From Escherichia coli (lineage in GTDB: Bacteria > Pseudomonadota > Gammaproteobacteria > Enterobacterales > Enterobacteriaceae): a DNA stretch of 64,000 nt. The stretch lies in assembly GCF_050920415.1 (NCBI RefSeq), contig NZ_CP169309.1. One strand, 5' to 3'. The notes beneath the pieces are model-generated. The model had not been told where the DNA came from. It saw only the letters and a list, made by a program, of their open reading frames with translations, and ran no database searches. A program made the translations under genes and the position numbers. How positions within the stretch are numbered: the stretch's first letter is position 1; each line of letters opens with the position of its first letter. Shown piece by piece: positions 37,449-40,957 of the stretch.

Positions 37449-37856
37449 TTAGTTGCCCAGACCGCGACCGGCGTCTTTCTCTTCGATTAATTCAATTTTG
37501 TAACCGTCCGGATCTTCCACAAACGCGATAACCGTAGTGCCGCCTTTTACCGGACCCGCTTCACGGGTGACGTTACCGCCGTTCTGACGGATTTTTTCGC
37601 ACGCTTCAGCGGCGTTATCTACGCTAAGCGCGATGTGACCATAAGCAGTGCCGAGTTCGTATTTATCCACGCCCCAGTTGTAGGTCAGTTCAATCACCGC
37701 TTCTTCGGTTTCCGGGCCATAGCCAACAAACGCCAGTGAGTATTTGTATTCCGGGTTTTCGCTGGTACGCAGCAGTTTCATGCCCAGTACTTTGGTATAA
37801 AAATCGATGGAGCGTTGCAGATCGCCAACGCGCAGCATGGTATGAAGAAGACGCAT
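37449..37856 (-). CDS. gloA: glyoxalase I
   Basis: 135 aa; recognised GloA sequence. Confidence 0.95.
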
Positions 37857-37936: not shown

Positions 37937-39034
37937 TTACAGCGTCGGGTAATCGGTATAGCCTTCCGCGCCGCCACCGTAGAAACTTTCGGCACGCTGT
38001 GGGTTAAGCTCAGCTTTGCGCTGCAAGCGGGCAACCAGATCCGGGTTCGCAATCCAGTCACGACCAAATGCCACCGCATCAATTAACCCTTTGCCGATCA
38101 GCGTTTCAGCTTTTTCTACCGTGTATGCCCCTGCGCCGATAATCGGACCGTGGAAACGGGCACGTACTTTTTCGCGGAACGCATCAGTATACGGTTCACC
38201 TCCCGCCCAATCTGGTTCTGACATATGCAGATAAGCAATGCCGCGTTTGCCCAGTTGTTCAATCAGATACAGTGCATCGGCTTCTTCATTTGGGCCATTA
38301 TCCGTGTTCTGGAAAGTACCGATTGGCGAAACACGAATGCCAATGCGATCGGCACCCCATTCTTCAATCCCGGCATCGACCACTTCCAGCACCAGACGTG
38401 CGCGATTTTCCACGCTGCCGCCGTACTGATCGGTACGATGGTTTGAAGAAGGAGAAAGGAACTGATGCAGTAAATAACCGTGAGCAGAGTGTAGCTCCAC
38501 CAGATCAAACCCAGCTTCACGGGCGTTAGCGATGGCCTGGCGGAAATCATTGACGATGCCCGGAATCTCTTCCCGTTCCAGTGCTCGTGGCATGGATGTT
38601 TCAACGCGGATCGCCTGACCTTTTTCATCGCGCAGAGAAGTACGCGTTCCCGCGCTAAGTGCAGAAGGCGCTACCGGTGCCTGACCGCCAGGCTGCAGGC
38701 TGGCGTGAGAAATTCGCCCCGTGTGCCACAGCTGCACGGCCATATGACCATTTTCAGCATGAACGCCAGCGGTGATTTTTTTCCATGCGGCAATTTGCTC
38801 CGGACTATGGATGCCAGGCGCGCCTGCATATCCTTTTGCCTGGGCGGAAATTTGCGTGGCTTCGCTAATAATCAAACCGGCACTGGCTCGTTGGCGATAG
38901 TATTCCGCCATCAACGGGGTAGGGATGTCACCCGGTTCAATACTGCGCAGACGCGTCAGCGGTGCCATAAAAATACGGTTTGCCGCCGTGATCGCGCCCA
39001 CTTTCAGTGGGGAATACAGTTTTTCAGATGACAT
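37937..39034 (-). CDS. nemA: N-ethylmaleimide reductase (old yellow enzyme family)
   Basis: 365 aa; recognised NemA sequence. Confidence 0.95.
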
Positions 39035-39070
39035 AAAGGCTCCCGGTGGTCTGGTGATAAAAAATGCCTG

Positions 39071-39670
39071 CTAAACGGCAGGCGTCGCAATAATGGTTTT
39101 TACATGGGCCAGCGCGTTTTCCAGTGGCTCGAAACTGCGCGAAATTTTGGCCTGCAAATTCGCGCCAAGCCACAGTGCGTAAAGCACTTGTGCCTGTTGC
39201 AGCGGTTCGCCACAAAAGGTTAAACAATGGTTCTCACGGCCATTTTCCAGCGCCTGAGAGAGCAGGGCGATTACGCCGCGAGCCCCTTTATCCATCGCGC
39301 TGCGCATATCTTCTGACAGATCGCACACTTCGGCAGAGAGTTTTACTGTCAGGCAACCACTGATGGTTCCATGTTGGCAAAACTGGTTCAGTGTTTGCTG
39401 GTAATAAGCCAGTATGCGGTCGCGGTAGTTACCTTCGCCGGATTGCAGCAACTCCGTCAGTCGCTGGTGATATGCGGCGTAATGGCGCTCAAGCATGGCA
39501 ACGCCAAACGCTTCTTTAGAGCGAAAGTAGTGATAGAAGGACCCTTTCGGCACTTCAGCCGTTTTTAGTAATTCGCTTAGCCCCATCCCGGTGAATCCAC
39601 GTTGCAGGCAAAGTTGCTCGCCCGTCGCCAGGAGATGTTCGCGAGTATCATGTTCGGTGTGTTTGTTCAT
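39071..39670 (-). CDS. nemR: TetR-family electrophile-sensing repressor NemR
   Basis: 199 aa; N-terminal HTH. Confidence 0.93.
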   Translation of the reverse strand: MNKHTEHDTREHLLATGEQLCLQRGFTGMGLSELLKTAEVPKGSFYHYFRSKEAFGVAMLERHYAAYHQRLTELLQSGEGNYRDRILAYYQQTLNQFCQHGTISGCLTVKLSAEVCDLSEDMRSAMDKGARGVIALLSQALENGRENHCLTFCGEPLQQAQVLYALWLGANLQAKISRSFEPLENALAHVKTIIATPAV

Positions 39671-39684
39671 GTGTTGGAGTGTAG

Positions 39685-39700
39685 TAGACCAGTCGGTCTA
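39685..39700. promoter_or_regulatory. NemR-box-like palindrome TAGACC-agtc-GGTCTA
   Basis: Perfect inverted repeat 15 bp upstream of the nemR start codon. Confidence 0.55.
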
Positions 39701-39772
39701 GTGCAAGCAAAGTTGCTACTTTGGGCATTAACAGCTTCAATAATGGTAATAATCTTATCTGAGGAGGGCGAG

Positions 39773-40012
39773 GTGGCGGAGCAATTAGAGTTCTTTCCCG
39801 TCCAGAGCCCGTGCCGGGGAATTTGCCAGTCTGACGAACGCGGATTTTGTCGCGGCTGTTTTCGTAGTCGGGATGAGCGTTTTAACTGGAATAAAATGAG
39901 CGATGGCGAAAAACAAGAGGTGCTGCGCCTTTGTCGGCAGCGATTAATGCGCAAATTACGTGCAATTAAGCCAGCGTCATCAGACGAACCGGAGCAACCA
40001 TCACTCTTTTGA
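39773..40012 (+). CDS. ydhL: DUF1289-family small Cys-rich protein YdhL
   Basis: 79 aa from a GTG start at 39773 with SD gaggaggg; the ORF track's 136-aa form runs upstream through nemR. Confidence 0.7.
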   Translation: MAEQLEFFPVQSPCRGICQSDERGFCRGCFRSRDERFNWNKMSDGEKQEVLRLCRQRLMRKLRAIKPASSDEPEQPSLF

Positions 40013-40060
40013 GCCTAATCTTGCGTATACTCCTCTCATATCTGATAAGAGGAAGCGATT

Positions 40061-40957
40061 ATGGTTCAGCGTATTACTATTGCGCCGCAAGGCCCGGAGT
40101 TTTCCCGTTTTGTGATGGGCTACTGGCGATTGATGGACTGGAATATGTCCGCCCGCCAGCTGGTCAGCTTTATTGAAGAGCATCTGGATCTCGGCGTAAC
40201 TACCGTGGACCACGCTGATATTTATGGCGGCTATCAGTGCGAAGCAGCGTTTGGCGAGGCGCTGAAACTGGCACCTCATCTGCGTGAACGGATGGAAATT
40301 GTCAGCAAATGCGGTATCGCGACGACCGCGCGTGAAGAAAACGTCATTGGTCATTACATTACTGACCGCGATCACATCATTAAGAGCGCCGAACAGTCGC
40401 TGATTAATCTCGCGACCGATCATCTGGATCTGCTGTTGATCCACCGCCCGGACCCGTTAATGGATGCCGATGAAGTGGCGGACGCGTTTAAACACCTGCA
40501 TCAGAGCGGCAAAGTGCGCCATTTTGGCGTATCGAACTTTACGCCTGCGCAATTTGCGCTGTTGCAATCACGCCTGCCGTTTACCCTTGCCACTAATCAG
40601 GTGGAAATATCCCCGGTGCATCAGCCGTTACTGCTGGATGGCACGCTCGACCAACTGCAGCAACTGCGTGTTCGTCCGATGGCGTGGTCTTGCCTTGGTG
40701 GTGGTCGTCTGTTTAATGATGATTATTTCCAGCCTCTGCGTGATGAACTGGCTGTGGTGGCGGAGGAGTTAAACGCGGGCTCTATTGAACAGGTGGTTTA
40801 CGCCTGGGTTTTACGTTTACCGTCGCAGCCGCTGCCGATAATCGGCTCCGGTAAAATTGAGCGCGTGCGAGCAGCTGTTGAAGCAGAAACCCTGAAAATG
40901 ACTCGCCAACAATGGTTCCGTATCCGTAAAGCGGCACTGGGTTACGACGTACCGTAA
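40061..40957 (+). CDS. ydhF: aldo/keto reductase-family oxidoreductase YdhF
   Basis: 298 aa; recognised YdhF sequence. Confidence 0.9.
   Translation: MVQRITIAPQGPEFSRFVMGYWRLMDWNMSARQLVSFIEEHLDLGVTTVDHADIYGGYQCEAAFGEALKLAPHLRERMEIVSKCGIATTAREENVIGHYITDRDHIIKSAEQSLINLATDHLDLLLIHRPDPLMDADEVADAFKHLHQSGKVRHFGVSNFTPAQFALLQSRLPFTLATNQVEISPVHQPLLLDGTLDQLQQLRVRPMAWSCLGGGRLFNDDYFQPLRDELAVVAEELNAGSIEQVVYAWVLRLPSQPLPIIGSGKIERVRAAVEAETLKMTRQQWFRIRKAALGYDVP

Follow-up and report, generated by a model that had tools for sequence, protein, structure and literature searches.

In Tn10, the operators of the divergent tetR and tetA genes overlap both promoters, so that a single repressor governs the pair. The NemR box of the nemRA-gloA operon was reportedly described by Umezawa et al. 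2008, whom later papers cite for it. NemR binds this site and loses binding upon alkylation or oxidation (PMC3739934, PMC5297802). Cys106 and Lys175 of NemR have been reported as its reactive-chlorine sensing residues (PMC5297802), and expression of gloA results from read-through from nemRA (PMC3739934). The acuR-acuI-dddL operon of Rhodobacter sphaeroides has been published as leaderless (PMC3017554). In E. coli, leaderless repressor mRNAs are represented by lambda cI (from PRM), Tn1721 tetR, dicA, racR, and ymfK (PMC4681348).

We analysed a 64-kb stretch of E. coli DNA, hereafter the window, that carries the nemR locus. The genes of the locus are as follows.

37449–37856, minus strand: gloA, glyoxalase I (coordinates converted from the annotation of a 100%-identical record)
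37937–39034, minus strand: nemA, N-ethylmaleimide reductase (Oxidored_FMN), in the same operon, downstream of nemR
39071–39670, minus strand: nemR CDS, ATG start, 199-aa TetR-family repressor (open reading frame list and RefSeq)
39773–40012, plus strand: ydhL CDS, GTG start, 79 aa, DUF1289
40061–40957, plus strand: ydhF, aldo/keto reductase, 48 nt past ydhL

The nemR and ydhL genes are divergent, and the region between them spans 39671–39772. The open reading frame coordinates thus confirm the 102-bp divergent region given by the initial annotation. The nemR product matches Pfam TetR_N and TetR_C_13, aligns over its full length of 199 residues with the crystal structure of NemR (PDB 4YZE), and contains both Cys106 and Lys175. 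A 1.1-kb query over the locus finds matches in 5,425 of 5,426 complete E. coli genomes, just 16 of the 5,425 reaching at least 99% identity. One strain is 100% identical, and RefSeq gives the gene order there as nemA, nemR, ydhL, ydhF, sodC, ydhK. K-12 MG1655 has an identical gene layout and likewise a 102-bp gap; its intergenic region differs by three single bases, which leave the palindrome and the promoter elements described below unaffected. The ydhF gene follows ydhL in 27 of the 29 ydhL loci (it was undetected in L021 and L028), and the ydhL-ydhF order is also seen in Salmonella and Klebsiella. A scan of 39500–40150 revealed no terminator-like site between ydhL and ydhF. As a whole, the 102-bp region is best explained as two back-to-back, largely independent promoters, a reading that we consider likely.

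The nemR side of the region contains a palindrome.

39685–39700, no strand assigned: NemR box, perfect 16-bp palindrome TAGACC-agtc-GGTCTA, operator of nemRA-gloA

The sequence TAGACCagtcGGTCTA is separated from the nemR ATG by 14 nt, so that its final base is at −15, i.e., its proximal base is 15 bp from the ATG (39670), as initially annotated. In the window, TAGACCAGTCGGTCTA is the sole exact match to TAGACCNNNNGGTCTA, and no match occurs in 100 shuffles. When up to two mismatches are allowed, the number of matches in the window is no better than chance; therefore, only the exact match has weight. The 16-bp palindrome expected of a NemR box, TAGACCnnnnGGTCTA, is thus present as an exact copy that is unique in the window, and it is positioned in the promoter region just upstream of nemR-nemA(-gloA), with nemA and gloA on the same strand as nemR. 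The NemR box is kept in every Enterobacterales nemR locus examined, whether ydhL is adjacent or not. It is always 13–15 nt away from the nemR ATG in Enterobacteriaceae and Yersinia, and the distance in Serratia is 17 nt.

Mutations selected in vivo hit the same site. Four honey-adapted E. coli isolates that have no coding mutations in nemR carry a G-to-A substitution described as intergenic (−84/−19) ydhL/nemR. Counted on the K-12 sequence, position −19 falls on the second G in the GGTCTA half-site. This recurrent substitution is independent in vivo support that the operator works. The exact and unique match, the conservation, and the neighbouring NemR-encoding gene all support the assignment made by the initial annotation: the palindrome is the already published NemR box, through which NemR represses its own gene. 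The operator finding is ordinary E. coli biology, already known.

A strict consensus scan of 39500–40150 for promoters and terminators detected no promoter, and its one terminator-like site is intragenic and expected by chance; an Rfam scan of 39400–40200 yielded a chance snoRNA match only (E=0.38). The thresholds of the strict scan are unsuited to these promoters; therefore, we used a PWM promoter scan of both strands of 39600–39800 together with phylogenetic footprinting. On the nemR strand, the following elements are predicted.

39701–39706, minus strand: predicted nemR −35 TTGCAC, abutting the box, in the top PWM promoter
39678–39683, minus strand: predicted nemR −10 TACACT, 1 nt beyond the box, from the PWM scan
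39668–39671, minus strand: nemR ATG (39670–39668) with the predicted transcription start at about 39671–39670, implying a leaderless mRNA or a leader of 0–3 nt

The best promoter on this strand, TTGCAC-17-TACACT, scores 9.8 bits, which is in the top 0.04% of window positions, and would start transcription near 39671. Its 17-bp spacer consists of one base and the 16-bp palindrome, and the distance from the end of its −10 hexamer to the ATG is 7 nt. To place this arrangement among related loci, we compared 80 loci with NemR relatives, 39 of which carry a NemR box with at most two mismatches. In all 39, TTGnnn abuts the box, TAnnnT lies 1 nt past the box, and the start codon of nemR is ATG. The in-frame ATG follows TAnnnT after 6 nt (11 loci), 7 nt (21 loci), 8 nt (3 loci), or 10 nt (4 loci), and the bases between the −10 and the ATG otherwise vary freely among loci. 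Distant NemR-like regulators (39–49% identity), taken from Burkholderia, Pseudomonas, Photobacterium, Vogesella, Thauera, and others, have TAGAC-N5-GTCTA and then TAnnnT 6–9 nt before the ATG. NemR itself matches the NCBIfam AcuR model with an E of 1.3e-34.

The nemR mRNA is probably leaderless; we infer its transcription start from the conserved geometry. Since the nemR −10 ends 7 nt before the ATG, transcription would be expected to start with the A of the ATG or with an adjacent base. A box in the promoter spacer combined with a near-zero leader would explain why the palindrome sits tight against the nemR start codon, and the conserved operator–ATG distance of 13–15 nt would follow from the same leaderless-type promoter geometry. 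In the window, the start codon of nemR is not preceded by a Shine-Dalgarno sequence: its anti-Shine-Dalgarno duplex is only −2.7 kcal/mol, the same as the median of 33 orthologues, as compared with −10.6 kcal/mol for ydhL. Weak Shine-Dalgarno sequences are not unique to nemR, though: many E. coli genes have them, and in the window, 24% of the long open reading frames have one that is equally weak or weaker.

This last figure would also suit an mRNA that starts upstream of or inside the palindrome and whose short leader lacks a canonical Shine-Dalgarno sequence, in which case NemR would act as a roadblock or overlap the start. Such an arrangement would agree with one published strain description, in which a lesion just upstream of nemR is termed a 'ribosome binding site' mutation. 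It would also agree with a global E. coli map, which lists five leaderless mRNAs without nemR among them (PMC4681348), although the weight of that absence is tempered by the repression of nemR in unstressed cells. However, an mRNA of this kind fails to explain why TTGnnn, box, TAnnnT, and an ATG 6–10 nt further on are kept in 39 of 39 loci, and why distant family members have a similar −10-to-ATG spacing. In addition, no better promoter is found upstream on this strand, the runner-up of the PWM scan scoring 7.0 bits with a start near 39736. We therefore regard such a nemR mRNA as improbable. In the searchable literature, which does not extend to the original NemR-box paper, we found nothing relevant on nemR or ydhM as leaderless. 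Not only nemR but also NemR-like TetR regulators across Proteobacteria may be leaderless, and their operator would then be built into the promoter spacer or the −35.

On the opposite strand, the region upstream of ydhL contains a promoter-like block of its own and an alternative hexamer pair.

39713–39718, plus strand: ydhL −35-like TTGCTA; TTGC is present in 29 of 29 loci, separated by 18 nt from CTTCA[AC]T, including those without an adjacent nemR
39735–39741, plus strand: ydhL block CTTCAAT, with −10-like TTCAAT at 39736–39741; predicted transcription start at about 39748, PWM score 6.9 bits
39728–39755, plus strand: alternative pair TTAACA-16-TAATCT; predicted transcription start at about 39762, PWM score 9.3 bits

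The motif TTGC-N18-CTTCA[AC]T is found upstream of ydhL in all 29 loci with fixed internal spacing, 25–32 nt before the start codon. In the window, it can be read as a promoter with TTGCTA, a 17-nt spacer, and TTCAAT. Because position 2 of TTCAAT is not the usual A, the hexamer is a putative −10 element. The pair TTAACA-16-TAATCT has the best PWM score on the ydhL strand but is confined to Escherichia and Citrobacter. E. albertii has a dispersed repeat of 120 bp between the ydhL block and the Shine-Dalgarno sequence, suggesting that this stretch is transcribed as 5′ UTR. The repeat has a median of 7 copies per E. coli genome, and its sequence recalls the ERIC element. Taken with its conservation, the block suggests that ydhL appears to have its own promoter, separate from that of nemR. 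Two other readings of this stretch were rejected. A candidate Fur box in the AT-rich 5′ region of ydhL has mismatches at 6 of 19 positions, and 21 equally good sites occur in the window; recognition of the CTTCAAT block by sigmaE, sigma32, or sigmaS is disfavoured by its spacing.

The initial annotation had suggested, from the tight geometry of the region, that NemR could co-regulate ydhL. The NemR box would then be a shared operator, through which NemR also represses (or activates) ydhL-ydhF, and ydhL would belong to the NemR regulon. The elements are indeed close together: 12 nt separate the box from the ydhL −35-like element downstream of it, only 6 bp lie between the two divergent −35 hexamers of E. 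coli, and Escherichia, Salmonella, Klebsiella, Citrobacter, Kluyvera, and others share the divergent gene order. However, the box is clear of the −35, the spacer, the −10, and the predicted transcription start of ydhL, its centre being at about −55 relative to the start predicted from the block or about −70 relative to the alternative start. It thus does not overlap both core promoters and transcription starts, as a shared operator would, and there are no second NemR half-sites near the ydhL promoter.

Nor is the arrangement of the operator relative to ydhL conserved. In species in which the genes are adjacent, the gaps between the box and the ydhL block are 9, 12, 20, 23, 30, 31, 37, 38, and 53 bp, with no constant helical phase. 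The spacing of the box is fixed on the nemR side and variable on the ydhL side, so the tightness noted in the initial annotation concerns nemR alone. In ten species, an insertion of 0.9–1.9 kb parts ydhL from nemR. The inserted gene is phosphoethanolamine-transferase-like (Enterobacter, Cedecea, Erwinia, Mangrovibacter, Yersinia) and is truncated in Cedecea. The ten species retain the ydhL block and the ydhF neighbour; their NemR box has remained next to nemR, and none occurs within 400 bp of ydhL. Likewise, none of the distant NemR-like regulators outside Enterobacterales has a DUF1289 neighbour within 2.5 kb.

Published functional data touch both genes. In an RNA polymerase ChIP-chip experiment with methylglyoxal, an induced peak covers 60% of ydhL, all of nemR, and 56% of nemA, which would fit a shared operator, but the peak is 1.5 kb wide and therefore too coarse to separate the two promoters. 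Overexpressed ydhL scored in screens for resistance to H2O2 and HOCl, and ydhF encodes an aldo/keto reductase, both of which would be in keeping with a place in the NemR regulon. On the other side, ydhL keeps its own block without a NemR box, and the gap between box and block is variable; therefore, direct co-regulation is not supported. Control of ydhL-ydhF through a shared NemR operator is thus doubtful, and direct co-repression of ydhL by NemR is unlikely from the layout of the sites. We infer that ydhL is independent of NemR in this direct sense. With the −35 hexamers 6 bp apart, competition between polymerases or coupling through supercoiling is possible. An indirect or weak effect of NemR on ydhL is conceivable.

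Translation of ydhL is assigned to the GTG at 39773, for which two further features are relevant.

39761–39768, plus strand: ydhL Shine-Dalgarno sequence GAGGAGGG, duplex −10.6 kcal/mol; a GGAG-type Shine-Dalgarno sequence is conserved in orthologues
39743–39745, plus strand: in-frame ATG ahead of the GTG, rejected as start of ydhL

Within the Shine-Dalgarno sequence, AGGAGG (39762–39767) ends 5 nt ahead of the GTG, and its duplex energy of −10.6 kcal/mol compares with a window median of −4.0 kcal/mol. In the RefSeq annotation of both the 100%-identical strain and K-12, ydhL likewise starts at this GTG. The start codon occupies one conserved position in 29 loci, being GTG in 25, ATG in 2, and TTG in 2. 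In every case, a GGAG-type Shine-Dalgarno sequence stands ahead of it and the conserved AEQLEFFP comes after it. In accordance, the N-termini of distant DUF1289 proteins align at residues 1–4 of the query.

The frame upstream of the GTG is open in E. coli, extending over 195 nt in K-12, and several public protein records are longer (87–125 aa), which would be expected if ydhL started at ATG 39743 (89 aa) or TTG 39602 (136 aa). However, these candidate codons are without a Shine-Dalgarno sequence and unconserved, and the starts of distant family members coincide in the alignment with that of the GTG form. ATG 39743 was rejected on these grounds and because it precedes both predicted transcription starts of ydhL, and an extension to 39602 would run over the nemR start and promoter. 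Many ydhL orthologues have an in-frame stop 6–30 nt upstream of the conserved start with no intervening start codon; therefore, ATG 39743 and the longer database forms are excluded. An upstream start is accordingly very improbable, and the GTG start with a strong Shine-Dalgarno sequence, as proposed in the initial annotation, is borne out by RefSeq, the orthologues, and the duplex energy.

The description of the product as a small Cys-rich DUF1289 protein also holds. YdhL has 79 residues and matches Pfam DUF1289 (PF06945) over residues 12–57 with 69.3 bits against a cut-off of 27. Four of its five cysteines are in the conserved core C-x3-C...C-x2-C, and these four (C14, C18, C26, and C29) are nearly invariant among 58 diverse members.

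The termini of DUF1289 proteins deserve a separate remark. In an alignment of the 58 proteins, an N-terminal pentapeptide is conserved like the four cysteines, with Q4 and F8 at 90% or above and the consensus QLELF, and QxxLF occurs at the extreme C-terminus, behind a variable linker. In the YdhL family, QLE[LF]F begins three residues from the N-terminus. Of 140 representatives, 119 carry an N-terminal Qxx[h]F, as compared with 12 ± 3 in shuffles, and 50 have the C-terminal motif within the last 12 residues, as compared with 3.7 ± 1.8 in shuffles. Common C-terminal forms are QLDLF, QLDMF, and QFDLF, and longer DUF1289 homologues contain several such motifs each. In the AlphaFold2 model of YdhL, the core (residues 11–60) has a pLDDT of at least 90 and the termini of about 60. 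A search of the PDB for the fold of YdhL gave no match (best E=7.8) and no solved relative. A search for DUF1289 in phages gave five weak matches, in jumbo phages. We found no functional literature on DUF1289 and no common partner among the neighbours of two distant DUF1289 genes.

The beta-sliding-clamp motif QL[SD]LF occurs at the N-terminus of Hda and at the C-termini of Pol II and Pol IV. The terminal motifs of DUF1289 resemble this clamp-binding consensus. Tentatively, YdhL could be a small four-Cys, probably metal-binding protein that docks on the beta clamp through its terminal QLxLF motifs, one per dimer cleft. The N-terminal motif of YdhL, however, is only 5 residues before the folded four-Cys core and could be structural. 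A single-chain AlphaFold2 model of YdhL-(G4S)8-DnaN has a mean pLDDT of 49.8, DnaN itself being poorly folded in it. If the clamp reading is true, the GTG start matters, as it sets the N-terminal motif three residues from the end; if the QLxLF motifs are real clamp binders, they would provide a first testable function for the uncharacterised DUF1289 family.

Taken together, the region would work as follows. A dimer of NemR, a TetR-family protein that senses electrophiles and bleach, would sit on the operator, which makes up 16 of the 17 bp of the nemR promoter spacer. Since the operator fills the space between the −35 and the −10, the bound dimer would exclude RNA polymerase. Transcription starting with the A of the nemR ATG or with a neighbouring base would produce a leaderless nemRA(-gloA) mRNA, the first gene of which would be translated without a Shine-Dalgarno sequence. 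In the opposite direction, ydhL, usually together with ydhF, would be transcribed from its own promoter-like block about 12 bp beyond the operator and translated from GTG 39773 via its strong Shine-Dalgarno sequence. The operator is clear of the ydhL core promoter; therefore, direct repression of ydhL by NemR would not be expected.

The locus is a clean example that closeness in a divergent region alone does not imply shared regulation. If the leaderless reading of nemR is true, translation of the NemR sensor itself would be independent of a Shine-Dalgarno sequence, which could account for a low level of the repressor relative to NemA and GloA. If it is confirmed, a conserved core gene would join the very short list of leaderless mRNAs in E. 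coli.

Compared with the NemR box of nemRA-gloA in K-12 (PMC3739934; PMC5297802), the locus has the same palindrome, the same genes, and the same 102-bp gap, and nothing essential differs. Like Tn10 tetR/tetA, it combines a TetR-family repressor, a palindromic operator, a short divergent region, and autoregulation. Unlike in Tn10, the operator here overlaps the nemR promoter only, and ydhL keeps its promoter when moved away. Like AcuR (PMC3017554), to which it is related, NemR is a TetR-family regulator encoded by the first gene of an operon for detoxifying or catabolic enzymes. It differs in that the leaderless status of nemR is deduced from geometry, and in that the inducers are electrophiles and HOCl for NemR but acrylate for AcuR. 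Like the classic leaderless repressor genes (PMC4681348), nemR has an ATG 6–8 nt past the −10 without a Shine-Dalgarno sequence. Those genes belong to mobile elements, however, whereas nemR is part of the core chromosome and is conserved throughout Enterobacterales.

The 16-bp palindrome recognized by NemR (39685-39700) is probably bound by a second regulator as well. The RutR consensus is TTGACCAnnTGGTCAA, and the palindrome agrees with this sequence at 11 of the 14 specified positions, so RutR probably binds the same palindrome as NemR. According to a review, the region upstream of nemRA is bound by RutR too, but RutR does not regulate the operon.

Outside Enterobacterales, genes for NemR-like TetR regulators in Burkholderia, Pseudomonas, Photobacterium, Vogesella, Thauera, and other genera (loci L040-L082) have in common a 15-bp palindrome, TAGAC-N5-GTCTA. 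In each case it is found ~50 nt upstream of the regulator gene, its left arm often also serves as a -35-like TAGACg, and it is followed by a TAnnnT hexamer 6-9 nt before the ATG. From this arrangement of palindrome, hexamer, and nearby ATG in distant loci, a leaderless-type, self-operated architecture seems to be family-wide among NemR-like regulators.

On the ydhL side, a CTTCAAT block (39735-39741 and orthologous positions) is kept from Escherichia to Yersinia. Read as a -10 hexamer, the block does not have the canonical A at position 2; it may be an atypical -10 element or the binding site of some other factor as yet unknown. In E. albertii (locus L004, 2296-2420), a 120-bp insertion, reminiscent by sequence of ERIC/IRU repeats, separates the ydhL promoter block from the Shine-Dalgarno sequence of ydhL, within the presumed 5' UTR of this gene. 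Copies of this element number 2-14 per E. coli genome (median 7), in unannotated DNA. The E. albertii ydhL starts with ATG, not GTG.

ydhL and nemR are separated in Enterobacter, Erwinia, Mangrovibacter, and Yersinia by a gene on the nemR strand that encodes ~540-585 aa. Judged by eye, its product appears to be phosphoethanolamine-transferase-like.

Gene between ydhL and nemR in individual loci
About 690-2480, nemR strand, intervening gene (L007, L010, L011, L028, L030, L031, L033-L035)
1789-2430, remnant of the intervening gene in Cedecea, 213 aa only (L025)

When a 1.1-kb query (window 39000-40100) is compared with complete E. coli genomes, only 16 of the 5,425 matching genomes are at least 99% identical, the others being 95-99% identical, so the window comes from an uncommon lineage. 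YdhL residue 65 is Ile in the window versus Asn in K-12. The closest match to the Fur-box consensus within the window (about 1234-1258; 3 of 19 positions mismatched) is near the sufA promoter region, as placed by coordinate arithmetic from K-12.

YdhL is 79 aa in most public records and 87-125 aa in some (P0002, P0004, P0017, P0019, and others). The E. coli reading frame is open upstream of the start (195 nt in K-12), and upstream start codons are sometimes chosen by gene callers. Among PMC5821084, PMC8228696, and PMC5389530, ydhL is classed as "essential only by TraDIS", scores upon over-expression in H2O2 and HOCl resistance screens, and is within the five most down-regulated genes of a pcnB mutant.

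The DUF1289 family is without a described function in the literature. Its four-Cys core is flanked by a near-invariant N-terminal QLE[LF]F and a C-terminal QxxLF, which takes the forms QLDLF, QLDMF, and QFDLF, and QPSLF in E. coli YdhL (YdhL, encoded at window 39773-40012, and protein records P0121-P0268, DUF1289 alignment A2). Long homologues carry several motifs of these types per protein. The motifs resemble β-sliding-clamp binding motifs.
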